A DNA stretch of 43,088 bases from a virus: IMG/VR virus record IMGVR_UViG_3300012917_000002, positions 1-43,088 of that record; one strand, written 5' to 3'. The notes beneath the pieces were generated by a model. It was not told where the DNA came from and did no database searches. It saw only the letters and a program-made list of their open reading frames with translations. The position numbers were made by a program, and so were the translations under genes. This document shows positions 2,592 through 43,088 of the stretch, piece after piece. The number at the start of each line of letters is the position of its first letter. Positions within the stretch are counted from its first letter, which is position 1.

Positions 2592-3010
2592 ATTATTGTA
2601 CAAAAGATGAGCATATATTTGATAATCAAGCTACTTGCTTATGTGGTATGTTACCAAATATTACTAGAGAATCCGCAAAAAGAGATCCTATAAAAGTTCG
2701 ATATGATATATTATTTCCACCATTTTTAGATGCATTAGCAAAGATAGCCCATTTTGGTGCAGAAAAATATGGTGATTTTAATTGGACTAAATCTCGTCTT
2801 AGAGGTGAAAAATCTCCAATTAATCATATTTATAAACATTTAAGTTCATATATTTGTGATGAACATTACGATCACTTAGAACTAGGGACAGAGCGAAAGT
2901 GGCATCTAGCTTCAATAGCTTTTAATGCAATGATGGAATTTTATTATGAAACAGAAGCACAACTACCCTCAATTCAGGAAAAAAGCACCACCAGTAAAAT
3001 TAAAATGTGA
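2588..3010 (+). CDS. dATP/dGTP diphosphohydrolase N-terminal-domain-like protein
   Basis: RYDILFPPFLDALAKIAHFGAEKYGDFNWTK...INHIYKHL matches my memory of the phage dATP/dGTP pyrophosphohydrolase family pattern. I prefer ATG 2588, which overlaps the polymerase stop as ATGA. The ORF track starts at 2546. Confidence 0.6.
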   Translation: MNYCTKDEHIFDNQATCLCGMLPNITRESAKRDPIKVRYDILFPPFLDALAKIAHFGAEKYGDFNWTKSRLRGEKSPINHIYKHLSSYICDEHYDHLELGTERKWHLASIAFNAMMEFYYETEAQLPSIQEKSTTSKIKM

Positions 3011-9002: not shown

Positions 9003-10424
9003 TTAAGTCTCCTGCCAAGTCGCTACTCGGCCTACACCTTTCTCTAATTCAAATACATAACCACGACCAGTGGAAGGTGGTGGAGGTATAACTGCTGTTA
9101 TAGTAAAAAAGAAATGATGTAATGCATCTTTAAAAGTAGCCCCGACTCCATACCATTTAGTACTATCAGAGCGATATACAATTAATTCACTTTGACTATC
9201 TAAAGTTCTAGAAAGCCCACTAGATACTAATGGTGCAGTATAAACTATTAATGCTACGGCCGCGGTCCAAGTTAATCCATTATCAGTACTTGATGAGTAG
9301 TATATAGTACCAGAAGCAATATAATTTGTCTCACCATGACTAGTTGCAAATCCAGTTACAGCAGTCCACAAAATAAATAGAACACCACTTAAGTAAGTTA
9401 AAATTGCAGCACTTTCTCTACCATATTGGAATCCCCACATCTGTGTTGTTGAATCAAATTGTATAACAGTAAATGTTGGATTAACTGCATCTATTCCCCG
9501 TACAATATAATTTAATAATGCAGGCCCAGGAGTATATGTTCCGCTTGCAGGCGGTCCAGTCGTGGCGCTACCACCATTAAACGGTGCTATAATATGAATT
9601 ACTGAACTACCATCAGTATAAATTAATGGCATTCCTGCCGAACCAAGTTGATAATTAGATAGATGAATATTTAAATCAGTAGATACTGTTTGTAATGTTC
9701 CAAAAGATCCATCATTAGTAATAATATGCATCCATAAATTAGTTGGATTACCACCAGATTGTGCAGTATCCCCCGATATTAAAAAGAAGTACAGGCGGCC
9801 GCCCGAAGTGATATCAATATGATAACATCCAAACGATCTACTTAATCCAGCCTGTCCAGGAATTAATGCCGGTGCGGTCCAAGTAGATCCATTATATTCA
9901 GCCCAATATACTCTTGTATAATCACTACCAGAAATAGTTTCAACTCCACCACAAAAAGCTAGGATAAGATTTCCATTAGCTCTAGTTGTTCCTCCAAAGT
10001 AAATATTTAAAAAAGCCCCATTTCCGGCTTCTACAGAAGCATGTACAGCAATTCCTGTATCGGCTTCAGTCATTGTATCACTAGTTGTATCAAATTTATG
10101 AAGCCAATAATGTCCTGGAATACGATCTAAATCATTGGTAAAAATATAAAGTAAGTTTCCACTTTTAAGTACGCTAAATATAAGTCCTACAAACCAAGGA
10201 CCTGTATTACCGCCGTCACCAAACTGAGTCCATGTAGCGCCACCATCAGTACTTTTATTAACAAAAAATGTATTATTTCCACTAGATGCACCTTCATCAT
10301 TGATAATTACATAACGATTAGCACCAAAAGTATAAGGTCCAAATTTTACAGTACCCATTTGGGCAAGAGTACCATAAGCAGTAGCTAATTGTACTGGAGT
10401 ACCAAGAGTAAGTGTAGCGGGCAT
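9003..10424 (-). CDS. BNR/Asp-box beta-propeller (sialidase-like) tail-associated protein
   Basis: Two clear Asp-box motifs, STDGGATWT and STDNGLTWT, in a 473-aa beta-rich ORF. Confidence 0.65.
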   Translation of the reverse strand: MPATLTLGTPVQLATAYGTLAQMGTVKFGPYTFGANRYVIINDEGASSGNNTFFVNKSTDGGATWTQFGDGGNTGPWFVGLIFSVLKSGNLLYIFTNDLDRIPGHYWLHKFDTTSDTMTEADTGIAVHASVEAGNGAFLNIYFGGTTRANGNLILAFCGGVETISGSDYTRVYWAEYNGSTWTAPALIPGQAGLSRSFGCYHIDITSGGRLYFFLISGDTAQSGGNPTNLWMHIITNDGSFGTLQTVSTDLNIHLSNYQLGSAGMPLIYTDGSSVIHIIAPFNGGSATTGPPASGTYTPGPALLNYIVRGIDAVNPTFTVIQFDSTTQMWGFQYGRESAAILTYLSGVLFILWTAVTGFATSHGETNYIASGTIYYSSSTDNGLTWTAAVALIVYTAPLVSSGLSRTLDSQSELIVYRSDSTKWYGVGATFKDALHHFFFTITAVIPPPPSTGRGYVFELEKGVGRVATWQET

Positions 10425-10968: not shown

Positions 10969-13900
10969 TTAGAATCACTTTCCATACCACTCAGAGATAC
11001 ACGTATTTGCATATCATATCTATGAAAGTAATCAATCGCCGGACCAAGTACAATACGGGCTACTGTTGTATTTATTGATTTAGGCATCTGAAGCTCGTAG
11101 ACATTATCAACTCCAACCACTACTGGTAGCGTTCCACTATAAATTGGAGTACCAATATTAGCAGGATCTGTAACATTTGCGTCACCATATATCGTTAAAG
11201 CTATAGGTGTAGCCCCGGTAGCCACTAATCGAGTTCTTAAATTAAAGATTTTCCCAATTTTGTCGAATCTGATTGGTCCAATTTGGTCAAATCGTTTAGG
11301 GACTGGGAGACCTTCAACATCCTCTTGTTGTCCAAATCCATAGAATTCAAAAGGCCCAGATGGGCTATATAAGGTCCCTCCAACATCGACTCCGAACATA
11401 TCGTCGATAAAGAAGTGGTATACTGTTGTCTTTCTTGTTGTGTTAAATACGGTTGTATGTGATTGTAATATACCGTCCACAATAGGTGTATAGAGGACAT
11501 CTTTTCCATTTGTAAGAATAACCAGTGGTATTGTACGAATACGCTTGCGGCCCGCGTAGCCGAAATTCTCTTGAGGAATAAATAGAAACTCAGCAGGTGT
11601 AGGAAGCTTCTCACTTACAGCCTCTTCAAGTAATGCTTGGTAAAATTCAAAAGGACCTTCCGGGTCTATTGATCTTAAGATTCCACCTATATCAGTACCT
11701 ATTGTTTCCTGGAGGAAATAATTAACTCGTGTTAGCTTAACTGCCGTAGAAAAAATCTGAGGAACCAAAGCAACGTTATCCACATAAGGAGTAAAGCTAA
11801 CGGAATTCCCCAGAGTATCAATAACAAATGGATAACTAGTAATCCGTTTTCTAGCATAAACACCTAAATTTGAATTCGGTATACGGAGATAATCAAGCTG
11901 TTCCGGCCGCGGATCATATTCAATCGTACTTTCGTACAATTTGAAGACTGTTACATCCGCCATGATATCAACAATCTTAAGTGCATAGCGGAATCCAAGA
12001 GTAACACCATCGAGTGGAAAATAGATAGTTGTCATTCCTGTAGCTTGTACATTACCTAAAGCTGTAAAAGTACCACGATCTTTAGCTATAGATACAGTAA
12101 CGAGCGATCCACCAGTGTCACATACAAGTTTTAATGTAAAAGTATCCTTACGATTACGTGGCTGCGCGTTAGCGTCGAAGATGGTTTGGAAAAATAAAGG
12201 TAAACCGTATTGTATAAAGTCACTAGCATTTGTCACTGGACCTAAATAGCCTGCTAGGACTTTATCTGTCGGCGTGGTAAATAAAGATAGTGGCGCCGTT
12301 TGGCGTAACGTAAATGTCTGTGCAAGTAAATCGTAAACAAATAGTCTTCGACTGCCATCTTGTAGTGGTAAAGATGCATAAAGCTTTGTCTTACCTGCTG
12401 TGATAGGATAAGCTATATTAGCGTTTGGCACAATAGATATTGGTGGGACACCATTTCTATTCATTCCCTGAAAAAGTAATTTTAATTGAGGAGAAAGTAA
12501 TGTTGAATGTGCCCCACGAGTAATTCGTATTCCATCGGACGCAACATAAAATATACCACCATTGACAGTCCATGCCTCGCGACCGAGTGGTGGGTAGGCT
12601 TCACCTATAGGAACAATCGTTATATCAATTGTACCATCTGGAAGAGTACCAAGCGTCCCCGTTATCTCATAAAGATTCTTACTTGTGCCTAAGCATAAAA
12701 CATTGTTAGAAACTTTCTTAATCCATAAATTGCGTTCCAATGTATCACCAAATGTCTTTATTGTATAGCGAGTATCAACAGCATCTGGATTAAGATCATC
12801 ACTAATATAGATAAACGAGTTAGCCATGTACAGAACCCTTGTCTGAAAAGGTTCTATATCATAAATAGTGTCAGTTAAAGCATTTGGATCTGGAGAACCC
12901 GGCCCGCCAACAAGTTGTAGAGTTAGTAAGAATTCATTAAGAATTTCGTTCTCTTCTAGAAGTGAGATATCTGAGCGGTTGTCAAAAAAGGAATCGTTAG
13001 TTGTTACGGCTACAAGATACCATTTACTTAAAAAAGATGTTGGTTGTACATCACTTGTCTGTACTGACTTACGGTATATATAATATATTGGTGGATAAAT
13101 ATCCCCCACAATTATTGGGGTACCCCCAGCACTTTGTAAACCACTTATAGTTATTGATCCATTTATAACTGTTATAGGATCACTTATTTGACCACCTGGC
13201 GATTTAGCTATGTATGAACCATATTGACGCCCGGACTGAATACGATATTGGTAAGTTCCATTAAGCTGACCTATAACTGTAAATATAGGAAGCGTAACAT
13301 TAAATGTTAGATTCTCAATAGCTATAATAGTGATCCGTATCTGGCGAACCGTAGTCCAATTAAGTGTAGCATCAGTACCGTGACGAGTAAAATCTTGTCT
13401 ACGACAGCTTAAATCTGTGGTATAGATAGTTTGAATATCTATAGGCCCATCCCACTTAAATGAATAGTAATTATTCCCAATAATATCAAGAAGAAAATCT
13501 ACTTGAACAGAAAGTACTTTAGGTACTGGATCTGATACAAGTGTTATAGTAAATAAATCTTTAGATGTATCTCCCTGAAATCCACGAGTCGTATCAAATG
13601 GAAGCCCCGTAATATATGTACCAATAACTTGACTTATAAAATTAGTTCCATCTACAGTAGCTTGGTATCCAGCGGTTGTATTAACCCCTAAAGTACCAAC
13701 AACTGCTACATAATTTGCACTAAATAATGCTTGTTGCTGAGATAATGCGTCAGTAAATGGAGTCCAAGGTGTAGGTATTCCAAGTCGTGTTCCACCATCA
13801 TCAATCGCAGCCGTACTTGTTTCTTTACCAGAAGCTTTCCACCGGCAAGTGCCAGCGGTTATTAATACTTGACCTAAAAAATCATCAAATGCACAATAAT

Positions 13901-14270
13901 CTGATCCAGGATTTTGATCTGCATTATTACCTAAAAAGAATGGTCCACCAGCCGGTCCATCCGCCCAGGTACCATCTTTTGTGAATACAATTAAAGATGT
14001 TCTATCCCCTAATGCGGCCCACTCAACTTCTTTATTCTCAACATTTTTTGAATAAAGAGATCGAGGATAATCTGAAAGAGGTTTTAAATCCTGTTGTTTC
14101 ATTCCTCTAACAAGACCAAGAACATTGTTCTCTTCTTGTTGAAGATTGTCCATACGTAGAAGTGCATCTGGCGGCCCGTCTACGTTATCAGCAGATGGTA
14201 TCCAACCCAAAGGCCAACTAGTTTTAGTTAAATTAGCCAACTTTATCCTTAAAATCCAAACTATCTCCAA
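10950..14270 (-). CDS. Large tail/hub structural protein (1106 aa)
   Basis: It is the longest ORF in the window, beta-rich, and lies in the tail part of the late operon. I recognised no enzymatic motif. Confidence 0.6.
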   Translation of the reverse strand: MEIVWILRIKLANLTKTSWPLGWIPSADNVDGPPDALLRMDNLQQEENNVLGLVRGMKQQDLKPLSDYPRSLYSKNVENKEVEWAALGDRTSLIVFTKDGTWADGPAGGPFFLGNNADQNPGSDYCAFDDFLGQVLITAGTCRWKASGKETSTAAIDDGGTRLGIPTPWTPFTDALSQQQALFSANYVAVVGTLGVNTTAGYQATVDGTNFISQVIGTYITGLPFDTTRGFQGDTSKDLFTITLVSDPVPKVLSVQVDFLLDIIGNNYYSFKWDGPIDIQTIYTTDLSCRRQDFTRHGTDATLNWTTVRQIRITIIAIENLTFNVTLPIFTVIGQLNGTYQYRIQSGRQYGSYIAKSPGGQISDPITVINGSITISGLQSAGGTPIIVGDIYPPIYYIYRKSVQTSDVQPTSFLSKWYLVAVTTNDSFFDNRSDISLLEENEILNEFLLTLQLVGGPGSPDPNALTDTIYDIEPFQTRVLYMANSFIYISDDLNPDAVDTRYTIKTFGDTLERNLWIKKVSNNVLCLGTSKNLYEITGTLGTLPDGTIDITIVPIGEAYPPLGREAWTVNGGIFYVASDGIRITRGAHSTLLSPQLKLLFQGMNRNGVPPISIVPNANIAYPITAGKTKLYASLPLQDGSRRLFVYDLLAQTFTLRQTAPLSLFTTPTDKVLAGYLGPVTNASDFIQYGLPLFFQTIFDANAQPRNRKDTFTLKLVCDTGGSLVTVSIAKDRGTFTALGNVQATGMTTIYFPLDGVTLGFRYALKIVDIMADVTVFKLYESTIEYDPRPEQLDYLRIPNSNLGVYARKRITSYPFVIDTLGNSVSFTPYVDNVALVPQIFSTAVKLTRVNYFLQETIGTDIGGILRSIDPEGPFEFYQALLEEAVSEKLPTPAEFLFIPQENFGYAGRKRIRTIPLVILTNGKDVLYTPIVDGILQSHTTVFNTTRKTTVYHFFIDDMFGVDVGGTLYSPSGPFEFYGFGQQEDVEGLPVPKRFDQIGPIRFDKIGKIFNLRTRLVATGATPIALTIYGDANVTDPANIGTPIYSGTLPVVVGVDNVYELQMPKSINTTVARIVLGPAIDYFHRYDMQIRVSLSGMESDSKWIPVR

Positions 14271-14625
14271 CAGCTATTTGGATATCTTTTATAAATAATT
14301 TCGTTAGCTCAGTTCCGCCCTCATGTTGATAATGAAAATAGATTATATCTTTCTTTATTTCATATTTCAGCCCTATCCATATAAAATGTGGTATAGCAAT
14401 ATAAATCCATCGAGGCTGTCCTATCTTAGTATAGTAACTTATCTTATCAATAACTTTAATTGTAATTGATATAGGATCACCAAGAAGTCTTGCTGTATGC
14501 AAGCTAGAATTCTGTTGAAAGGCTTCTCCTACTTCATACTCTACTCCAAGAGTAAGCCCAGCCTCTCTAGCTACATCCGTAGTAAATGCTGTTGGATTAT
14601 TATGTCGATCTGTTCTAAAAGTCAT
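14233..14625 (-). CDS. Hypothetical protein (possible cell-wall-acting virion protein)
   Basis: 130-aa ORF. The N-terminal RHNNPTAF vaguely resembles an RxNNPxN motif seen in some phage wall-associated proteins. The functional call is weak. Confidence 0.35.
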   Translation of the reverse strand: MTFRTDRHNNPTAFTTDVAREAGLTLGVEYEVGEAFQQNSSLHTARLLGDPISITIKVIDKISYYTKIGQPRWIYIAIPHFIWIGLKYEIKKDIIYFHYQHEGGTELTKLFIKDIQIAVGDSLDFKDKVG

Positions 14626-15686
14626 GGCACATCATTTAAATATCTCCTTATATAATTTATAAATAATCCACTATCACCCATAGGTGGTTGAATCACTTGA
14701 ATTGAATCACTAAGACTTAGAGTATCAACTGCGGTACGCTGAATATTTAAAATCCCAATATTAGTTATCATTAATCCAGTAATAAGATCGTTTAGACTTA
14801 GTGCATCAGTTACAATTCTTTGAATATCTAATATACCTAAATTCGTTACCGCTGTGAGAATACTATCAGAGAAACTTAGTGTATCATTTACATTTATTCG
14901 AATATCTCCAGATAATGCTAATGCAGCAATTGAATCATTAAGACTTAAAGTGTCACCCACAAATACACGAATATCAGATATAGGTGGGCCAGAAATTGCA
15001 ATAGAGTCGCTTAGGCTTAGAGTATCTGATATCTTCAGTTGTAAATCTAATAATACATTTATGCTATCAGATAATTGTAGTGCATCACTAAATAATACAG
15101 TATTATCTGTAGTTCCAGTAATAACTTGATCTGTCTCTGTAGCAACTAATAATCCTATAATATTTAATGGGGTTGGATTTGTTGGAGCAGTCAATGGTAT
15201 AGTAAAAGATACAGTTGCAAGAATACCACTAGCAATAATATTTGAATTATGCCCAAATACTAGCATATTATCACCAATAGTATCTAATTCTTTCCCAGCA
15301 GTAGTTCCGGCCGTGCCAATGGTTGCAGAATTAATAGTTAAATTAGCGTGGTCATATTGTAAGGCCCATTGAAGAGCAGAAGGAAAGGCATTGCCAGATA
15401 CTATTATATGTATACTAACTATTACTGTAGCGCCAAGTGCACCGATAACTTGATCTATAGATAAAGATACAATTCCAGATTCAATTAATCCAATATTATT
15501 AGTAACTAATATAGCGTCAACTAAAGATAGCTGGTCAGATACATTTATTGGAATACTAATGACATAAGATAAATTATCACTAAGAGCTAAGCTGTCAACC
15601 GCAGAGCGAGGTACACCATTAGCTGTAGCAATAGCATCACTAAGAGCTAAGCTATCGCTAACAGAGATAGGGATATCAGTTGGCAC
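14622..15686 (-). CDS. Repeat-rich fibre-like protein with central cohesin-like module
   Basis: Flanking DxLSLSDSI-type repeats occur at least 10 times. The central segment (aa ~72-197, nt 15096-15473) reads GATVIVSIHI...ALQWALQYDHANLTI...SGILATVSFTI, which matches the cohesin domain pattern as I remember it. Confidence 0.55.
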   Translation of the reverse strand: MPTDIPISVSDSLALSDAIATANGVPRSAVDSLALSDNLSYVISIPINVSDQLSLVDAILVTNNIGLIESGIVSLSIDQVIGALGATVIVSIHIIVSGNAFPSALQWALQYDHANLTINSATIGTAGTTAGKELDTIGDNMLVFGHNSNIIASGILATVSFTIPLTAPTNPTPLNIIGLLVATETDQVITGTTDNTVLFSDALQLSDSINVLLDLQLKISDTLSLSDSIAISGPPISDIRVFVGDTLSLNDSIAALALSGDIRINVNDTLSFSDSILTAVTNLGILDIQRIVTDALSLNDLITGLMITNIGILNIQRTAVDTLSLSDSIQVIQPPMGDSGLFINYIRRYLNDVP

Positions 15687-17399: not shown

Positions 17400-18116
17400 T
17401 TAGAAGATCACTCTCTCAAAATTAGCAGGTAATAATGGCCGCGACTGGCGGAAATTATCTATTGCTAAGCGACCGTCATCTATAGCATATTTCTTAGAAA
17501 CAAAACATCCTTCATTAATCGCCCGAAATTGGTTAATTAAAAATTCATATTTATTCTTATAATAAGCTGCCGCAGTCAAAGACTGACCTTTACCTTCTGC
17601 TCCATATGCTTTCCAAAGTATCCATGCTTTACGTGTCCTACGATCTATATATTGTGGTAACACAAGAGTTGGATCAACATAAGATGTATCAGAAGTTCTC
17701 CAGCATGAAACTACACAAAATGGCTCATTTACTACTGGTCCATAAGGATCACCACCGGCTACGCCGAAGGTTTCATTTGGTGTTGGGAATAGTCGTATAT
17801 CATATGGATTTGTAGGATGTAGGCAATAATAAAGTGGTCGTGATACAACACTATTAACATTACCAGAATTTCCTGTTCCTACAAATACTGTTGCAGGAGT
17901 AAGAAGAGTCATCTCTTCCCAACTTACCGGATCTAATTTCCGCCCGCGCCACGTAACTCTAAGTACTGATCTTACGTAAGATGGCAACGTATAAACCATC
18001 AAACCAGATGTAACAGCTAGATAGAATTTAAAATAAATAGCTTGCAAATCTTGATTGATTTGCTGTTCTGCGTCAATCGCTAACTTGTTAAGGAAAGTGT
18101 TAGACCAAATAGACAT
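17400..18116 (-). CDS. Putative adaptor/tail structural protein
   Basis: 238-aa ORF. It shares a loose pattern with the next gene (RKL-P-S...W...P-YY...P-P), suggesting the two are paralogues. Confidence 0.45.
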   Translation of the reverse strand: MSIWSNTFLNKLAIDAEQQINQDLQAIYFKFYLAVTSGLMVYTLPSYVRSVLRVTWRGRKLDPVSWEEMTLLTPATVFVGTGNSGNVNSVVSRPLYYCLHPTNPYDIRLFPTPNETFGVAGGDPYGPVVNEPFCVVSCWRTSDTSYVDPTLVLPQYIDRRTRKAWILWKAYGAEGKGQSLTAAAYYKNKYEFLINQFRAINEGCFVSKKYAIDDGRLAIDNFRQSRPLLPANFERVIF

Positions 18117-18126
18117 ATCTTTTTAT

Positions 18127-18747
18127 TTACTTCAAAGAAGGTAAACGATCAGGTAATCTCTTATTTCTCATATAAACTCTTAAACTTTCCAAGTCATTTA
18201 TATAAGATTCAAGATGATTCCTCGCCTTAATAAATTCTTGATTCTGCTCAAATAAATCAGTTACACAATAATTCTCAAGCGCTGTTAAATGGTCGTCAGG
18301 AATAGGTATATTTGTAGCATCGACGAGAGTCGGGGCGGCCGCGCGGTAGAACACAAACATATTACCATAGCCGGCTGCGCCTGGTTTCTTATAGATAGCT
18401 ACATATCTATGTGATATTGGTACAAAATAATATGGTGTACCAAGTGCCGTTTCCCAATCAATTCGATCTTGATCCAACTTGCGTTGTGATGTTGGAATAA
18501 GCCATCTTTTTATATTATTATTGAAAATAGCAACTACACCTATATAGTTAGGTAGAAGTGTTAGGAGATCATAATAACTTTTTCCAGCAGCAAAGTTGAT
18601 TGTCGCAGATGCATAGATACATCCTGTAAAAGCACATATCTCATCTACACCATCTTGAATAGAATCATTCATGTCACCAACGGTGTAATAGGTGGGATTA
18701 TTTAGATATAGTTGTATACTATTTTGAATATCTATTCGAGTGGACAT
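18127..18747 (-). CDS. Putative adaptor/tail structural protein
   Basis: 206-aa ORF immediately downstream of the fibre gene in the late operon. Confidence 0.45.
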   Translation of the reverse strand: MSTRIDIQNSIQLYLNNPTYYTVGDMNDSIQDGVDEICAFTGCIYASATINFAAGKSYYDLLTLLPNYIGVVAIFNNNIKRWLIPTSQRKLDQDRIDWETALGTPYYFVPISHRYVAIYKKPGAAGYGNMFVFYRAAAPTLVDATNIPIPDDHLTALENYCVTDLFEQNQEFIKARNHLESYINDLESLRVYMRNKRLPDRLPSLK

Positions 18748-18762
18748 TTCATTTCTTCTCCA

Positions 18763-20643
18763 CTAATTGAGAATCGAGTAAGAAAGACACAGCGGATTCG
18801 TCGCAATGGTCCCACTATAGGTAATCGTAAAACTTGTTCCGGGAGTCCGTGCCGTAATCGCCATACCACCTACAAGCGTAGCAAGTATACTATTACAGGT
18901 CGTAGCTGCAATGATTAATGAATCGTCAGCCTGTAAGTGAATTGCGCTGTTAGCGGTGACTGCTGTAGTGTTCACCACTAATGAGACACTGGTTATTCCA
19001 GTCGGTAGCGCCACGTCTCCTGAAGCGGCATCAACACACATAGCCGGTGACCCTGCATCAGAGCAACGAGTAGCTGTGCCCCATAATGGAGAGGATGTAG
19101 TACCGAACAACTGTGTTGAAACGGTACTGCTATTCCCAATGACAGTCTGATTGCTGGCTGTGGCCGTCCCGTTGATCGCGATGATGTTAGTCAGCGGATT
19201 TCCCGTTGATGCGTTCACCGCCGTGAACCCCGACAACGTCGTCGAGGTCCCTAACACGACCGAGTTGTTGATGTCTTTATCCGTCCCGATCAACGTATCG
19301 CCGCTGCCATAGAACGCGGAGTTTGTTCCATCCCCAATGCTTCTGGCGGAGCGATAGCCACTGGCCAGTAGATAAGGTCCGGTATTATTTTGAGAGGACT
19401 CTTTGCCATTTACGGTGACGCCATTCCCTGTATTATTTTCTGCGGCAGCAAAACCAGATACAGTAACATCATTGCCGGTATTGGCATTTGCTGCGTTTTC
19501 CCCCACGGCTACGAGGAACCCACCTGTGTTATTTTGAGCAGCCGCGATCCCTATCACGGTTACATTCGCGTTGGTATTTGATGCCGCTGCGTTTTTTCCA
19601 ACGGCCGTCAGACTATTTCCAATGTTCTGAGCGGCGGCGGAATACCCCATCGCTGTAACATAGCTTCCGGTGTTCGCTTCTCCTGCATTCTGGCCTAAGA
19701 AGCTACTACCGTATCCCGTGTTGTTTTGCCCGGCATAGTACCCAAAGGCACTGAGCCCGTCACCCATGTTGTTTTCCCCGGCATGATGGCCGACAGCCAT
19801 GGCGTATAGACCGCCGTTATTTTTAAGGGCGTCATAACCCAGCCCCAAAGTCAAATCAGGAAACCGCAATGGTAAACTCAGATCCGTTTTAGAACTATTT
19901 GTAAGACTAATAAAAGCAGGGAATGGCGCGGAAACGCCGGAGGTATAGCTTTTCACCGAGACGGAAGCAAGCACCCAGCCATCTCCGTCCGCTAAGAAAT
20001 TAATGGCATTTGAATCCATGATGAACGTGTAGGTACCTGGATTCACCATGGTGAAATAAAACGTCGTGCCGTTAGTTACTTCTAACCCGAAGCCAGCACC
20101 ACGTGTGGCTAGAACTGCTTCTACCCATACTTTCCCCATCCCACTTATCGATTGAGACAGTGTTCCGCCCGCCATACCGACTGCTTGATTAGCGACGTTG
20201 GTCCAACTCATCGTAGGATCAACGGTCCACCCGGTTAGATCACCAGTTTGAAAAGTGCCGTTAGTTAAAAGTTCTGTGTTCCCAATTGTTGGGGCTAAAA
20301 CAGAACTGACACTAACAGTTGTTGGAGAAGTCGTATTAACAGAAAATATTCCTCCACCACCATTTAATTGTGCTTGCCCTACTGAGCCTGCCGGGGTAGC
20401 TCCACCACCTAATGATATAATAACCCAAGCAGATCCATTTGATCTACAAAAATTAATACTACTTCCACCACCTACTGTACAGTCACTACTTGAAGATCCA
20501 TCTTTTATAATACGTACTGTACCATTATTAGATGATGCAGATCCTAATCCAGCTACTGTATAATTACTTCTTACAACCGCTGTCGGTTGCGCCAGTAAGC
20601 TGATGGTTAAAATTAGTCCTATTAAATATTTCACTTTTCTCAC
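18763..20643 (-). CDS. Chimeric tail fibre/adhesin with Sec-type leader, jelly-roll-like domain and NTG beta-roll repeats
   Basis: N-terminus is MRKVKYLIGLILTISLLAQP. LLTNGTFQTGDLTGW is like a CBM/galactose-binding-like domain. Ten 16-aa A-x-x-N-N-T-G repeats follow. The C-terminal ~500 aa lie in a higher-GC segment. Confidence 0.7.
   Translation of the reverse strand: MRKVKYLIGLILTISLLAQPTAVVRSNYTVAGLGSASSNNGTVRIIKDGSSSSDCTVGGGSSINFCRSNGSAWVIISLGGGATPAGSVGQAQLNGGGGIFSVNTTSPTTVSVSSVLAPTIGNTELLTNGTFQTGDLTGWTVDPTMSWTNVANQAVGMAGGTLSQSISGMGKVWVEAVLATRGAGFGLEVTNGTTFYFTMVNPGTYTFIMDSNAINFLADGDGWVLASVSVKSYTSGVSAPFPAFISLTNSSKTDLSLPLRFPDLTLGLGYDALKNNGGLYAMAVGHHAGENNMGDGLSAFGYYAGQNNTGYGSSFLGQNAGEANTGSYVTAMGYSAAAQNIGNSLTAVGKNAAASNTNANVTVIGIAAAQNNTGGFLVAVGENAANANTGNDVTVSGFAAAENNTGNGVTVNGKESSQNNTGPYLLASGYRSARSIGDGTNSAFYGSGDTLIGTDKDINNSVVLGTSTTLSGFTAVNASTGNPLTNIIAINGTATASNQTVIGNSSTVSTQLFGTTSSPLWGTATRCSDAGSPAMCVDAASGDVALPTGITSVSLVVNTTAVTANSAIHLQADDSLIIAATTCNSILATLVGGMAITARTPGTSFTITYSGTIATNPLCLSYSILN
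19303..19782 (-). repeat. Ten tandem 48-nt (16-aa) degenerate repeats inside the fibre gene
   Basis: AGENNMGDGLSAFGYY / AGQNNTGYGSSFLGQN / AGEANTGSYVTAMGYS and so on, aligned by hand. This is the periodicity of adhesin-head (YadA/Hep_Hag-like) beta-rolls. Confidence 0.75.
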
Positions 20644-27518: not shown

Positions 27519-29000
27519 TTAAGTTGAAGCAGCTACCAAAGCACCTTTAGACATTTTCTTTATCATATTAAAATACTTAAGTGTGTTTCGACTAACGGGA
27601 CGGCTAATCTCCGTTTTAGGTGATCCATGCATTGCAACAAAGTATCTAGTAGGATCATACGCATGGTCAGTCACACTATCCTCGCGATCGTCACAGTAGA
27701 TAGCTTTGCCTTCAAAATAACCAAGTAACTTACGCCGTTGACTTTGCAACTGTGTAATTGCATGATAGCAGCCATAAGGATTTTCAATAGATCGTTTAAT
27801 GAAATATATTCCTGGTGCAGGGGAACTTTCAGTATAGGGATGTTTAAAACGGTCCGCGGGTCGTAGAAGCTCATTTATTCGATTACGAGTAGCATGTTCA
27901 TTATTATCTGCTGGAAGCCACGCAATTGGAGGTGCATCGATTTCTTTCGTAAGGTATTCATCAGCTACTGTCCAAAATCCTCCAGCTTTTTGAGCTGTCT
28001 TTTTAAAAATTTGGGGATCTGCAAAGTTTGAGCTATATCGTTCCGCGCCGCTTAAGTCAAAAATTGCTTTTCTATGATTAGAAATAACTTCGTTGGGACA
28101 ATAGTATTCTCTATAACAAATGTATACTCCGCGAAAAACTCCAAACCAGAGACAGCAAGTAGGAGACGAATCTCCATGATCCAAAGATCTAAACAAATTC
28201 CCCTTTGTTCGTAATTTTTCCATAAAATCTTTATCAAACTCAAGAGAGCTTTCAGGCAAAAGACGATGTATCTGAGCATTAGAAATTCCCCATTTACCTA
28301 ATACATATTTTTCAATATATTCCGAACCCTTTTTAAGTGCATTTCTATAAGTTTCTTCAGATCCAAGACCAGGATCCCACTCACCTTCTGTAAAAAAATA
28401 TTCTGGATCAACTGTAAGTGACTCAGGATGATATTTACGATATATATAATGATACTGTGTATCAGGATTTGTAAGTAGCATCATATAAGATGGAGCAATA
28501 AGACGACCTGTCTTAGGATTTCGTGGCCATTGCCCATTATGTGCTAATAATGAAGCTGGAATCTCAACATTATCCCAGCGGCCGATACGAGCATCAAGAA
28601 CATCATAAACTTTCTCTTCTGTTTCCTCAGCTTGGTCTACTAAGACACTATTAACTTCCAAACCACGCAACGTATTTTCATCAACTTTATCTAAATGAAG
28701 CCAAAAAATTGTACTTTTATTCTTAAGTACCGTTAATCCATCTTGTTCATTGTGGCGCTCAATTAGCTCAGAAGGACAAAGTTTAAAGAAAGTCTGCATT
28801 GTTGTACGTTTAAGATCGGCATAAACCTGACGAGCAATAGCCATTCTATAGTTATGGAAAGTCGATAGTAGTGTAAAAGCCTTAAGACAACCTGCGTAAG
28901 TCTTACCATTGTTAAAACCTCCACTAAAGCACTGGTTTCTGCTATTAGAATAATAAAATTGACGTTGTTGAGGATTTGCAAACTGAATCTCTAAATCCAT
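27519..29000 (-). CDS. terL: Terminase large subunit
   Basis: Walker A is GGFNNGKT and Walker B-like is VLVDQAEE, followed by a C-terminal nuclease-type region. I prefer ATG 29000 (a TAATG overlap with the upstream stop) over the track GTG at 29018. Confidence 0.9.
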   Translation of the reverse strand: MDLEIQFANPQQRQFYYSNSRNQCFSGGFNNGKTYAGCLKAFTLLSTFHNYRMAIARQVYADLKRTTMQTFFKLCPSELIERHNEQDGLTVLKNKSTIFWLHLDKVDENTLRGLEVNSVLVDQAEETEEKVYDVLDARIGRWDNVEIPASLLAHNGQWPRNPKTGRLIAPSYMMLLTNPDTQYHYIYRKYHPESLTVDPEYFFTEGEWDPGLGSEETYRNALKKGSEYIEKYVLGKWGISNAQIHRLLPESSLEFDKDFMEKLRTKGNLFRSLDHGDSSPTCCLWFGVFRGVYICYREYYCPNEVISNHRKAIFDLSGAERYSSNFADPQIFKKTAQKAGGFWTVADEYLTKEIDAPPIAWLPADNNEHATRNRINELLRPADRFKHPYTESSPAPGIYFIKRSIENPYGCYHAITQLQSQRRKLLGYFEGKAIYCDDREDSVTDHAYDPTRYFVAMHGSPKTEISRPVSRNTLKYFNMIKKMSKGALVAAST

Positions 29001-30412
29001 TAAGGCCCTACTACACAAGTACCACCAAGCGCAGCTGTAACTATACGTAATACAGTATTTACATTACACACACCTTGACCATTTATATTAGCGGTACATG
29101 GAATCTTACTAAGCTCCATATCAACAACTAACTTTACATCAAATATATCAGTTCGGCCATCTTTATTTAAATCACAGGCATAAGGTGTTGTAAAAGCTCC
29201 GAGATCCCATGAAGTATTAGATCGAGTGAACCCGTCAAAATCAAGTGCTGCTTGAACAATCGGTACGCCACGACCTATAGCTGGGCTATTTGCCTGTAAA
29301 TGATAATTAAATATACCGGGATTTACAAAAAGTGGATCTCCAATAGTATTATTAGTTTGAGTAATAGTACCCAACCCACCTTGCGGATTTATACCAGTAC
29401 ATACATCTGGAGTAATTATATTTGGAAGCAATACAGTTATTGAAGAACCAAAGAGGAGATTATGGTCGAATAAGTTAACCCCAGTGTAAGTAGAATCAGG
29501 ACAATCCGCAACTACTGCTCGCTGAATATTTCTAAATATACTATTACGTATTTTAACATTGCCTACAGTGTCACCATTACCATCACCAATTTGAATAACT
29601 CCATCTCGACAACCAAGACAAGCAGGACCATCGAAAGTATTATTTGATATATTATAATCAGTACCACTACCTATAGGTGTTATAGCAATAGCCCAACCAG
29701 CAAGAAGATCATAAAAAATACTATTAACTATAGTTACAAAGCTACCATTTATATATAAATTTTGGTCATGCCAATAAGCCTGACTACAAGGAGCCGGATT
29801 AGTATTACAAGGACTTAAACGACCGATATGATGAAATATATCACTGTCAAAAGTAATATTATTAGAACCATTTAAAACTAGAACGCCTACTTTCGCGCCG
29901 GCTGTGTTAGTTATTATATTTCCTATATTTCTAAATTCACAATGTTTAAAAGTTAAATTATTTCCTTGTGAAAATATTCCAGCCACATAAGTATTCTGAA
30001 TTATAAAGCTATCTATGGTTATATATGTAGCAATATTGGAGATAAAGAAATAAGAGTGGCATAACATACCTGAGTCTAACGTAGCGCCACGCAGATTCTC
30101 AGCTTTTATAACTATAGGGCTACCCGAGGAGGCGGCCGTAGATATAGTTACTGCATAACCATCAGGGGATAGAATATTACTATTTTGAGGATCTGGTGCT
30201 GTAGTTGTACAGTGGCCTGCTCCTGGGCCATAAGTACCATTTTTAACTACCACTGTGTCGCCAGCAATTGATACATTTACACCTTTTTGTATAGTTAAAT
30301 ATGGAGCAGCCGCAGTTCCAGCATTTGTATCAGCTCCACTGGTGGCTACATAACGTGTTGCTGCGCAACCTATAACTGAAGTAAGAATAATATAGATAAT
30401 AAATTTACGCAT
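29000..30412 (-). CDS. Right-handed beta-helix (pectate-lyase-like) protein with lipoprotein leader and C-terminal dockerin
   Basis: The leader MRKFIIYIILTSVIGC contains a lipobox. Beta-helix repeats include ITIDSFIIQNT and LTFKHCEFRNIGN. The C-terminus DLNKDGRTDIFDVKLVVDMEL...NINGQGVCNVNTVLRIVTAAL forms two dockerin-type Ca-loop/helix segments (nt 29024-29173). Confidence 0.7.
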   Translation of the reverse strand: MRKFIIYIILTSVIGCAATRYVATSGADTNAGTAAAPYLTIQKGVNVSIAGDTVVVKNGTYGPGAGHCTTTAPDPQNSNILSPDGYAVTISTAASSGSPIVIKAENLRGATLDSGMLCHSYFFISNIATYITIDSFIIQNTYVAGIFSQGNNLTFKHCEFRNIGNIITNTAGAKVGVLVLNGSNNITFDSDIFHHIGRLSPCNTNPAPCSQAYWHDQNLYINGSFVTIVNSIFYDLLAGWAIAITPIGSGTDYNISNNTFDGPACLGCRDGVIQIGDGNGDTVGNVKIRNSIFRNIQRAVVADCPDSTYTGVNLFDHNLLFGSSITVLLPNIITPDVCTGINPQGGLGTITQTNNTIGDPLFVNPGIFNYHLQANSPAIGRGVPIVQAALDFDGFTRSNTSWDLGAFTTPYACDLNKDGRTDIFDVKLVVDMELSKIPCTANINGQGVCNVNTVLRIVTAALGGTCVVGP

Positions 30413-42855: not shown

Positions 42856-43088
42856 ATGCCTATTATAGTAAAAGAAACTGAAAGCATACCTATAGAAGAA
42901 GTAAGTAATTCTAATAATATAAATATCCCATGTGAATTATTTAATTGTGGTAAGATCCCTACAGAACTAACAAGTATAGTATTTCCTAACAATAAAATAA
43001 TTTGTAAAATTTATCTTTGTAAGTCACATTTAGAAAGTAAATTTATTCATAATTCAGTATTAATATATCTCAGAAAAATTGGATTACT
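42856..43088 (+). CDS. Cys-rich protein whose ORF runs through the terminal repeat (continues at 124-151 on the circle; 86 aa in total)
   Basis: Hand translation: MPIIVKETESIPIEEVSNSNNINIPCELFNCGKIPTELTSIVFPNNKIICKIYLCKSHLESKFIHNSVLIYLRKIGLL, then GNSLEPIS followed by the stop at 149-151. There is no stop before the window end. Confidence 0.5.
   Translation, partial: MPIIVKETESIPIEEVSNSNNINIPCELFNCGKIPTELTSIVFPNNKIICKIYLCKSHLESKFIHNSVLIYLRKIGL
42966..43088. repeat. Terminal direct repeat, copy 2
   Basis: Exact copy of 1-123. Confidence 0.9.

Follow-up and report, generated by a model that had tools for sequence, protein, structure and literature searches.

Organization of the locus

The window, by which we mean the whole 43,088-nt stretch of soil phage DNA analysed here, begins with a direct terminal repeat (1-123) identical to positions 42966-43088, and because its ends share this exact 123-bp match we take it to be a complete genome. 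It encodes exactly one dockerin and one cohesin. The dockerin belongs to the product of an ORF directly upstream of terL, present as the sequence-only reading had described it, and the cohesin to a fibre-like protein of the tail-gene block. The features discussed below are as follows.

27519..29000, minus strand: terL, directly downstream of the beta-helix gene (phrog_2 terminase large subunit, E 1.2e-18; 68 related loci)
28998..29002, minus strand: TAATG, the beta-helix stop codon overlapping the probable terL ATG (sequence)
29000..30412, minus strand: beta-helix/dockerin gene, 470 aa (ORF list, AF2, homologues at 34-44% identity)
29003..29179, minus strand: dockerin-family module, residues 412-470, 59 residues (family profile, PDB profile matches, AF2)
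29192..30358, minus strand: right-handed parallel beta-helix core, residues ~19-407 (Foldseek, NCBIfam, motif of alignment A5)
30365..30412, minus strand: predicted signal peptide, residues 1-16, MRKFIIYIILTSVIGC (lipobox regex, leaders of homologues, AF2 helix 3-11)
14233..14625, minus strand: 130-aa gene adjoining the fibre gene (tblastn against L168 and L169, 55-61% identity)
14622..15686, minus strand: fibre-like protein in the tail-gene block, 354 aa, with neither signal peptide nor cysteine
15111..15485, minus strand: cohesin domain, residues 68-192 of the fibre-like protein (Pfam, PDB profile matches, AF2 and Foldseek)

The TAATG overlap suggests translational coupling inside a late operon, and the position of the stop codon over the terL start points to late expression of the enzyme. 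In terL homologues the alignment begins at residue 7, MDLEIQF. Relatives of this phage carry unrelated small exported proteins in the slot upstream of terL, and an exported accessory enzyme would fit such a variable slot; among 146 related phage loci, neither the beta-helix enzyme nor a dockerin was found. A terS role for 29000..30412 was ruled out, as the architecture is that of a secreted enzyme. The same phage has a separate tailspike-like gene at 18763..20643.

A predicted secreted beta-helix enzyme

The AF2 model of the 470-aa protein (mean pLDDT 82.4, pTM 0.81) is matched by Foldseek to the PL9 enzyme Pel9A (1ru4, E 5.5e-9, query-normalised TM-score 0.50), with further fold matches to a PL9 rhamnogalacturonan lyase (5olq/5olr), GH136, PL6 and RbmB. 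The pectate-lyase-type beta-helix proposed earlier is thus recovered as a right-handed parallel beta-helix. Viral beta-helix proteins are also found among the fold matches. At the level of families, Pfam Pel9A-like_beta_helix scores 19.9 bits against a threshold of 25.2 and covers the N-terminal cap only, and with NCBIfam PelN the score is 26 bits (cut-off 740). A choice-of-anchor Q segment (residues 364-407; NCBIfam choice_anch_Q, 28.5 bits, cut-off 25) closes the core, which also contains the motif FHHIGR...WHDQNLY, conserved across alignment A5 in the family form FHxIGR...(H/D)D/HxxxY. Homology and the modelled fold identify the gene product as a predicted Sec-exported beta-helix enzyme of the polysaccharide lyase/hydrolase type and of bacterial origin.

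Its closest full-length bacterial relatives sit in Wzy-type exopolysaccharide synthesis loci. The same dockerin is present in two homologues, P0045 and P0003, and as these are placed between genes for Wzy, glycosyltransferases and UDP-glucose dehydrogenase, exopolysaccharide is the likely substrate. In three exopolysaccharide loci (L148, L164 and L165), the genes for beta-helix-dockerin proteins had no cohesin nearby. A search of 5.8 billion proteins returned no phage homologue of the enzyme besides P0001, a 99% identical fragment. Recent transfer from a high-GC host was ruled out, as the GC content of the gene (35-37%) equals that of the rest of the phage genome (37%); the Bryobacterales loci described below range from 54 to 66%.

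The leader of the protein can be read in two ways. Residues 1-16 match a PROSITE-type lipobox, [LVI][ASTVI][GAS]C after a basic n-region and a hydrophobic h-region, in a regular-expression search that tests the pattern only. Type-I cleavage between GCA and ATRYVAT fits the leader equally well, because the mature N-terminus would then equal that of the bacterial homologues (A(T/S)YYVAT), whose signal peptides lie at the same position. Of the lipoprotein leader claimed earlier, the signal peptide and the lipobox match therefore stand, and the term lipoprotein describes a pattern match to which the type-I cut is an equal alternative. Other phage cohesin or dockerin proteins have AxA-type leaders. 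Cysteine content was tried as a marker of export and proved not to be clean, as the enzyme contains 3.0% cysteine and several cytoplasmic enzymes 2-2.8%; what counts here is the set of four family-invariant cysteines in the dockerin.

The C-terminal dockerin module

The sequence-only reading had placed two dockerin-like segments at nt 29024-29173. These coordinates hold, with D414 at nt 29173 and L463 at nt 29024, as do the first calcium loop and the membership of a dockerin family; the second segment is degenerate and the Pfam score sub-threshold. Segment 1, DLNKDGRTDIFD, has a complete calcium-loop pattern (D1, N3, D5, D9, D12) followed by a helix, and segment 2, NINGQGVCNVNT, lacks an acidic residue at positions 1, 5 and 12 of its loop, a loop that keeps its canonical form in about one third of the family. 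AF2 predicts helices at residues 423-433 and 451-461 (pLDDT 75-91), and the module contains four family-invariant cysteines, C413, C439, C449 and C466.

As a single sequence, the isolated C-terminus scores 13.2 bits with Pfam Dockerin_1 (PF00404; cut-off 22.9), and the full protein gives no match. The earlier reading had named the lack of a significant dockerin HMM hit, along with the lack of a predicted or measured interaction with the cohesin-like module, as evidence against itself, and at 13.2 versus 22.9 bits this single sequence would formally go against it. The dockerin assignment is supported by the family. With a three-sequence profile, at least 2,688 proteins were recovered at E<=1e-3 over the whole length of the module. 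Four cysteines are conserved in this family, and 23 of 40 sampled members match Dockerin_1 (best 3e-9). The PDB matches of the family profiles are dockerins first and almost exclusively, and cover the first loop and helix only; the best match of the dockerin profile is 4fl4_A (4e-5), then come 1daq, 2mte, 2y3n_B, 5nrm_B and 1ohz_B. Profiles were required, since single-sequence PDB searches with the beta-helix protein and the fibre protein were uninformative and the 78-aa C-terminus by itself gave no match in a word-based protein search. Proteins bearing the family include many secreted enzymes, among them beta-helix, LamG, FN3, GH16, GH18, GH114 and GH123 proteins. From the profile evidence and the model, the C-terminus is assigned as a divergent member of a cysteine-containing dockerin family.

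A cohesin in a fibre-like protein

The fibre-like protein consists of SDSLxLSDxI-type repeats, an inserted cohesin domain and a conserved C-terminus, YIRRYLNDV. Pfam Cohesin (PF00963) matches residues 74-197 with 31.2 bits (GA 24.1), and the cohesin profile matches PDB cohesins. The AF2 model of residues 70-185 is all-beta (pLDDT about 70-80), and the top 50 PDB matches of the cohesin model in Foldseek are all cohesins (E 4e-9, target-normalised TM-score 0.75). The cohesin-like module suspected at 15096-15473 is, by these Pfam and Foldseek results, genuine, and domain search and modelled fold together place a true cohesin within a repeat-rich protein encoded in the tail-gene block.

IMG/VR scans with the single fibre protein and with alignment A4 found no relatives, and PHROGs gave no function for this protein or for most proteins of the tail block. 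At least four further phage sequences (P0034-36 and L161) encode cohesin fibres. One of these, P0034, is a 55%-identical copy annotated with PF00963; in its phage, no dockerin was found within the 21 kb examined of a 39-kb contig. The head domain varies within the fibre family, and P0037 has an F5/8 type C domain in place of the cohesin.

A cohesin-dockerin system in Bryobacterales

We scanned genomes with an alignment of six sequences of the phage dockerin subtype, as an alignment of 40 sequences was too diverse. All 11 genome loci recovered belong to Bryobacterales (Acidobacteriota), and in seven of them a cohesin ORF lies within 3 kb of the dockerin gene, as detected by a profile built from phage cohesins only. 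The phage dockerin is 58-67% identical to the host dockerins, and the nearest bacterial cohesin, from Solibacteraceae, is 41% identical to the phage cohesin (E 4e-21); both L155 ORFs exceed the Pfam Cohesin threshold. In one arrangement a signal peptide-cohesin-Ig protein adjoins large dockerin proteins, and in another a cohesin adjoins a signal peptide-dockerin-FN3 protein. The bacterial cohesin proteins beside dockerin genes have signal peptides, and no anchoring domain was recognised in them. By sequence comparison, both phage modules are close to modules of one Bryobacterales system whose genes are neighbours, a system for which we know of no earlier description. Because the phage has 37% GC against 54-66% in these loci, a Bryobacterales host is indicated by the shared genes only.

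A second, unrelated phage (IMGVR_UViG_3300024251_000007, 64 kb), which has essentially no other genes in common with the window phage, carries both a cohesin-headed fibre without signal peptide and a signal-peptide enzyme with a dockerin-like module. In its relative L168, an ORF at 12310-12969 encodes a 220-aa protein in which a signal peptide is combined with a cohesin and a two-loop dockerin, and adjoins a dockerin-bearing enzyme. The 130-aa gene beside the fibre gene of the window phage has counterparts in this second lineage, at 55-61% identity in L168 and L169. On a 119-kb viral contig, the 20 kb examined contain a secreted dockerin-FN3 protein only. The idea that the two modules of the window phage belong together thus gains from their common source in one Bryobacterales system and from the second phage; it is weakened by the two proteins being made for different compartments.

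Discussion

Our analysis suggests that a phage enzyme and a phage fibre carry the two halves of a docking system. The enzyme has a Sec signal and four invariant cysteines and the fibre has neither signal nor cysteine, so the two would meet only outside the cytoplasm, and as the enzyme is exported and the fibre cytoplasmic, any docking on virions must come at or after lysis. We therefore consider a mechanism in which the enzyme would be produced late, alongside virion proteins, exported, and folded outside the cytoplasm with calcium and disulfides; at or after lysis its dockerin would plug into the fibre cohesin of particles that have been released. Virions would in this way be armed with a host-derived exopolysaccharide depolymerase that is unable to fold in the cytoplasm, where they are assembled. 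Host cohesin scaffolds could be a further binding partner of this dockerin. We regard this mechanism as quite possible, though somewhat short of probable, and docking onto host scaffolds and docking onto virions are about equally likely. Action of the enzyme at the host envelope, raised as a caveat by the sequence-only reading, has a likelihood similar to that of its attachment to the virion.

Some observations complicate docking on virions. A lipobox that is used would tether the enzyme to the membrane, the dockerin has only one intact calcium loop, its second being degenerate, and the slot upstream of terL is variable in relatives. At 58-67% identity between phage and host dockerins, host proteins would compete for the fibre cohesin, and the cohesin fibres in at least four other phage sequences without an enzyme homologue point to a role of the fibre cohesin that is independent of the enzyme.

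It is almost as likely that the modules act separately, each with a host partner, the enzyme docking on host cohesin scaffolds and the fibre cohesin gripping dockerin-tagged host surface proteins. At the surface or in the matrix of the infected cell, the enzyme would cut exopolysaccharide, with the effect of releasing progeny, destroying receptors or excluding superinfection, and the fibre cohesin would be an adhesin or a receptor-binding head during adsorption. The signal peptides of the bacterial cohesin proteins beside dockerin genes favour such host partners, although no anchoring domain was recognised in these proteins. The dockerin family tags many secreted enzymes, a choice-of-anchor Q segment stands ahead of the phage dockerin, and other exported proteins occupy the same slot in relatives, all of which agrees with action on the host; on the side of the fibre, the variable head (F5/8 type C in P0037) is typical of receptor-binding diversification. 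Each module also occurs where the other was not seen, with cohesin fibres in phages in which the beta-helix enzyme was not found and only a secreted dockerin-FN3 protein in 20 kb examined of the 119-kb contig. Yet both modules co-occur in two unrelated phages, and if their types are cognate, the phage proteins would bind each other once lysis mixes them.

It appears improbable that the dockerin came along with the bacterial enzyme gene as a passive remnant and now, without a partner, serves as an end cap, stabilised by calcium and disulfides, on a free soluble or lipid-anchored depolymerase. The dockerin's second calcium loop is degenerate, its Pfam score is sub-threshold, no cohesin lies near the beta-helix-dockerin genes of L148, L164 and L165, and there are many non-cellulosomal dockerins for which we know of no partner; but the module is intact, with four cysteines and loop 1 conserved despite a phage-like base composition, and its integrity in a gene fully adapted to the GC content of the phage argues for selection on it. 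Cohesin genes beside this dockerin subtype, seen in 7 of the 11 bacterial loci, also speak against a remnant. Beta-helix folds are common in tailspikes, and with viral beta-helix proteins among the fold matches and the gene in a late operon, the protein might be taken for an ordinary tailspike that is assembled into the virion in the cytoplasm, its hydrophobic N-terminus not being a signal peptide. We rejected this conventional reading, which is very improbable, on the lack of an adaptor domain, the secreted relatives and the absence from related loci: the beta-helix begins 3-4 residues past the leader, at residue ~19, and no adaptor or particle-binding domain precedes it at the N-terminus; the closest homologues are bacterial enzymes that are secreted and whose leaders sit at the equivalent position; none of 146 related loci has the gene, its position not being conserved; and the phage has a separate tailspike-like gene (18763..20643).

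In cellulosomes, docking with high affinity is classically achieved by cohesin-dockerin pairs. The phage cohesin shares its fold with, and has detectable sequence homology to, the clostridial type I cohesins (C. thermocellum; A. cellulolyticus, 5nrk/5nrm; C. acetobutylicum, 6kgc), and the phage dockerin shares the loop-helix repeat, with clostridial cellulosome dockerins as the best PDB matches of its family profile and a C-terminal position on a secreted glycan-active enzyme here too. In contrast to these cellulosomes, the modules are encoded by a phage, a fibre protein of virion type that lacks a signal peptide houses the cohesin, the dockerin combines a degenerate second calcium loop with four conserved cysteines, and the source lineage is Acidobacteriota, not Bacillota, without a cellulose-related context. 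Non-cellulosomal modules (the Archaeoglobus fulgidus cohesin 2xdh and Clostridium perfringens GH84C, 2w1n/2jh2) are among the fold matches of the phage cohesin, and such modules likewise occur outside cellulosomes on assorted secreted proteins; unlike those of the phage, they are cellular. The L168 ORF resembles adaptor scaffoldins such as ScaB of A. cellulolyticus in carrying cohesin and dockerin on one secreted protein, but it is phage-encoded, has only 220 aa and is absent from the window phage.

Phage depolymerases are known to attach through dedicated N-terminal adaptor or branching domains, as in the T4 gp10-like domains of the CBA120 tailspikes, in G7C gp63.1/gp66 and in the multi-depolymerase systems of Klebsiella phages. 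The purpose would match, a polysaccharide-cutting beta-helix enzyme being held on the tail; those proteins, however, are trimeric and assembled in the cytoplasm, whereas the window enzyme resembles a monomeric secreted bacterial enzyme, with a signal peptide and a candidate attachment at its C-terminus. The literature we searched held no natural phage cohesin-dockerin pair, in agreement with the earlier reading, which knew of no described phage that attaches an enzyme in this way. In a putative ANME archaeal virus, a NosD-like beta-helix protein with a signal peptide lies beside dockerin domains, for which the authors propose roles in adhesion, lysis or the matrix as hypotheses only (ISME J 2026, PMC13452462). 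The likeness is a viral signal-peptide beta-helix protein found with dockerin domains; that virus differs in the domain of its host and in dockerin type, and no viral cohesin was reported for it and no virion-side partner proposed.

A wider generalization, which we consider doubtful though conceivable, is that at least two unrelated soil phage lineages captured both halves of an acidobacterial system, their cohesin fibres capturing exported, disulfide-bonded glycanases with a dockerin tag after lysis, in some cases by way of a secreted adaptor with both cohesin and dockerin; the particles would then carry host-type enzymes that are unable to fold in the cytoplasm. Should the two phage modules prove to pair, they would represent a new fitting of a depolymerase to a virion, one that is extracellular, modular and exchangeable, and a rare case of virion maturation after release. 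If each pairs with a host partner, a host docking system would be used for adsorption and for placement of the enzyme on the infected cell. Protein engineering might also gain new orthogonal docking pairs from the modules. Whichever pairing applies, our analysis reveals a Bryobacterales cohesin-dockerin system, with a distinct cysteine-containing dockerin type in thousands of proteins. Bryobacterales are abundant soil bacteria that produce much exopolysaccharide, and the shared modules offer a lead to the host of a large uncultured group of soil phages.

Genome context of the enzyme gene

The window carries an exact 123-bp repeat at both ends, which makes it a complete phage genome, about 42,965 bp long. 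This genome has a podovirus-like appearance and stands very far from cultured phages, the closest terL match among GenBank phages being 23% identical. Recognised genes include those for the portal, the large terminase and two SU10-type adaptors. The features referred to below are:

1-123 = 42966-43088: direct terminal repeat, exact 123-bp match
14233-14625 (-): 130-aa gene adjoining the fibre gene
14622-15686 (-): fibre-like protein with a cohesin domain, 354 aa
15676-16692 (-): GT2-like protein (27.9 bits), directly upstream of the fibre gene
17400-18116 and 18127-18747 (-): SU10 adaptor tandem paralogues (36 and 59 bits)
29000-30412 (-): beta-helix enzyme, ORF of 470 residues, late operon

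The ORF list confirms the sequence-only reading that the enzyme is encoded directly upstream of terL. The gene belongs to the late, minus-strand operon: its TAA stop overlaps the probable terL ATG (TAATG), and the gap to the conserved 90-aa gene before it is only six bases. Its GC content is phage-like (35-37%), so the gene is not a recent import. Elsewhere in the 37% GC genome, a 626-aa ORF at 18763-20643 (-), located between methyltransferase and adaptor genes, has a weak K1-lyase C-terminal match, contains a 52% GC island (especially 19001-20000) and is missing from all related loci; it has the appearance of a tailspike-like gene that was acquired recently. Another ORF (2546-3010, +) encodes a dATP/dGTP diphosphohydrolase N-terminal domain (PF18909, 53.6 bits), a domain known from the MazZ protein of phages whose genomes contain 2-aminoadenine; none of the window ORFs scanned was recognised as PurZ-like.

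Related loci were fetched via terL (68) and via the conserved GT2-like gene (75), and neither an enzyme homologue nor a dockerin was found in them. The GT2-like protein is kept in at least 23 related phages, and many related loci have a weaker paralogue about 3.5 kb before it. In a large protein search, the enzyme matched only a 99% identical fragment and bacterial-type homologues. The stretch between the 90-aa gene and terL ranges from about 0.1 to 3.3 kb across loci, and in at least eight (L002, L003, L013, L014/L019, L022, L023, L037 and L045) it ends in a small unrelated protein with an N-terminus that, by eye, resembles a signal peptide. This suggests that the slot upstream of terL may be a cargo site for exported proteins.

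The enzyme ends in a divergent dockerin-family domain

The C-terminal dockerin proposed from sequence is supported at the level of the family and not by the Pfam HMM. Pfam found no dockerin in the complete enzyme, and the isolated C-terminus scored 13.2 bits against a cut-off of 22.9, with one loop covered. The same module closes P0003 and P0029, two homologues retrieved by the first protein search, and a profile of these three sequences, run against 1.84 billion representatives, matched 2,688 proteins at E<=1e-3, of which 583 reached E<=1e-10, over the whole module. The family has four invariant cysteines in the pattern C-D-x-N-x-D-G ... P-C-T ... G-x-C-N ... G-G-x-C, and the module is C-terminal in 96 of 146 full-length domain copies. 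About a third of the family retains a canonical second calcium loop (DINKDGxCNVxDVQ); the enzyme belongs to a subtype in which this loop is decayed, ANINGQGVCNVNTV. Pfam Dockerin_1 is matched individually by 23 of 40 aligned members (best 3e-9), and family profiles searched against the PDB return solved dockerins first and almost exclusively. In an AlphaFold2 (AF2) model of the enzyme, the module forms helices at residues 423-433 and 451-461 (pLDDT 75-91). On this family and structure-profile evidence, the module is a divergent dockerin-family domain, though sub-threshold in Pfam alone. Some family members, such as P0040, P0043, P0052 and P0074, carry multiple dockerin repeats.

Fold, export and likely substrate of the enzyme

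The AF2 model, built on a 24-sequence alignment, bears out the proposed beta-helix core, showing a right-handed beta-helix (mean pLDDT 82.4, pTM 0.81). In structure it comes closest to pectate and rhamnogalacturonan lyases of PL9, GH136, alginate lyases of PL6, chondroitinase B and RbmB, a matrix lyase of Vibrio; many viral beta-helix proteins match as well. The phage enzyme retains a motif of its homologue family (FHxIGR ... HD/DH-x-x-x-Y), which does not fix the enzyme class. Residues 364-407, directly before the dockerin, match the NCBIfam choice-of-anchor Q domain (28.5 bits; cut-off 25). Choice-of-anchor domains precede interchangeable C-terminal anchoring signals, and dockerin-less homologues of the enzyme have tails of the FN3, LamG or Ig-like kind in its place.

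Among full-length bacterial relatives, the closest ones with the same dockerin are encoded in exopolysaccharide loci. The gene for P0045 (36% identity) is flanked by Wzy_C and UDP-glucose dehydrogenase genes, near GT4, methyltransferase and deacetylase genes; that for P0003 (34%) adjoins GT4, Polysacc_synt_2, UDP-glucose dehydrogenase and a second beta-helix-dockerin gene; and P0122 is encoded by one of three beta-helix-dockerin genes in tandem. Because of these neighbourhoods, we infer that the substrate may be the host's own exopolysaccharide.

The predicted export of the enzyme is well supported. Of the lipoprotein leader first proposed, export and the match of MRKFIIYIILTSVIGC to the lipobox pattern stand, and the enzyme may be lipidated; an alternative cut, GCA|ATRYVAT, would give the same mature N-terminus as in the bacterial homologues. 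Other phage-encoded cohesin and dockerin proteins have plain AxA-type leaders.

A cohesin domain in a fibre-like protein

The cohesin-like module previously noticed in another late gene was upheld by both sequence and modelled structure. The fibre protein contains no cysteine, is without a signal peptide, and consists of SDSLxLSDxI-type repeats surrounding an inserted domain that scores above the Pfam Cohesin threshold (31.2 versus 24.1 bits). A profile of the fibre with three phage homologues matches the cohesin chain of an A. cellulolyticus complex (5nrm/5nrk). Furthermore, the AF2 model, confident for residues 70-185 only, has nothing but cohesins among its 50 best PDB matches (E 4e-9, target-normalised TM-score 0.75).

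Relatives of the phage retain the repeats and the C-terminal YIRRYLNDV without the cohesin insert, whose place is taken by an F5/8 type C domain in P0037, a distant homologue. With repeats and C-terminus conserved and the head differing, the protein resembles in its sequence a fibre whose binding head can be exchanged. Its position in the tail-gene block suggests a virion protein. Cohesin fibres occur in at least four other phage sequences (P0034-36 and the locus L161); no dockerin was found in the 21 kb read of the 39-kb contig encoding P0034.

Related modules in Bryobacterales

Scanning genomes with the dockerin subtype yielded 11 loci (54-66% GC), all from Bryobacterales (Bryobacteraceae, Solibacteraceae). 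A cohesin HMM built solely from the four phage proteins matched ORFs at most 3 kb from the dockerin gene in seven of these loci; across 146 phage loci, it matched only the window and the phage encoding P0034. The closest bacterial cohesin (in locus L158) is 41% identical across 115 residues (E 4e-21), both ORFs of locus L155 pass the Pfam Cohesin threshold, and a joint phage and bacterial profile matches solved cohesins (best E 7.5e-7).

Two arrangements were seen. In five MAGs, probably at orthologous loci, a signal peptide-cohesin-Ig (He_PIG) protein of about 730 aa and a dockerin protein of about 890 aa are encoded convergently, the cohesin calls coming solely from the phage-built HMM. In L155 and L158, the cohesin gene adjoins a small signal peptide-dockerin-FN3 gene. 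No cohesin was found near the beta-helix-dockerin genes of the three exopolysaccharide loci, so adjacency is common without being universal. Secreted proteins of many kinds carry a dockerin of this family. The Bryobacterales loci (L149-L159) apparently represent an undescribed cohesin-dockerin system, and the comparisons establish the identities of the phage dockerin and cohesin and their common bacterial origin. Bryobacterales as the host is a lead drawn from the shared modules, against a GC gap of about 20 points.

Both modules recur in a second phage lineage

A metagenome scan with the fibre alignment identified Ga0247679_1000033 (IMGVR_UViG_3300024251_000007; 63,915 bp, 53% GC), and a separate IMG/VR scan with the dockerin alignment arrived at the same phage. 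Its tail block encodes a 526-aa protein without a signal peptide that has an N-terminal cohesin (HMM score 83) followed by SVSDSxTVTES repeats. About 14 kb further on the same strand is the gene for a very large signal-peptide protein, in which an internal dockerin-like module (score 64, with its second half intact) precedes a beta-helix. This phage also encodes a 29% identical copy of the GT2-like protein. Two further viral proteins carry these modules:

L168 (IMGVR_UViG_3300010397_000053, a relative of this 64-kb phage), 12310-12969 (+): adaptor-scaffoldin-like protein, 220 aa, with signal peptide, cohesin (score 37) and two-loop dockerin
L160 (IMGVR_UViG_3300009551_000002, a 119-kb viral contig), 9932-10423 (+): signal peptide-dockerin-FN3 protein

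The 220-aa protein, whose canonical two-loop dockerin scores 21 bits in Pfam (22.9 required), has the domain architecture of an adaptor scaffoldin, and its gene comes directly after the one for an exported enzyme of 1425 aa that bears a dockerin-like module. L169 and L170 encode similar exported enzymes, in which the modules are C-terminal. The L160 protein is 52-55% identical to bacterial ones beside cohesin genes (L155, L158, L159).

The window phage and the second lineage have almost nothing else in common except the 130-aa gene, whose counterparts (55-61% identical) lie near the L168/L169 cassette (L169 14139-14468, L168 16260-16589). Its presence in otherwise unrelated phages suggests either recent exchange or a functional link with the cohesin and dockerin genes.

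Possible roles of the two modules

Full-text literature searches turned up no cohesin-dockerin pair in a natural phage. A NosD-like beta-helix protein with a signal peptide has been noted beside dockerin domains in a putative ANME virus; that report gives hypotheses only, and a cohesin is not reported (2026, PMC13452462).

We infer that the phage dockerin may pair with the phage cohesin. If the two are of cognate types, as the bacterial neighbourhoods suggest, any encounter between the exported enzyme and the fibre cohesin would lead to binding; the only place for such an encounter is outside the cytoplasm, at lysis or later. That the exported enzyme arms virions through the fibre cohesin is a plausible reading to which we give a little less than an even chance. 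It would account for the joint recurrence of the two modules in unrelated phages, for the presence of a cohesin on a virion protein, and for the fact that an enzyme needing oxidative, calcium-dependent folding is exported instead of incorporated into the tail. Alternatively, each module could have a separate host partner, the enzyme binding host scaffolds and the fibre host dockerin proteins. The occurrence of cohesin fibres without this enzyme, and the apparent use of the terL-upstream slot as a cargo site for exported proteins, favour this proposal, which we hold tentatively and consider rather short of even. Arming of virions and use of separate host partners are not mutually exclusive.
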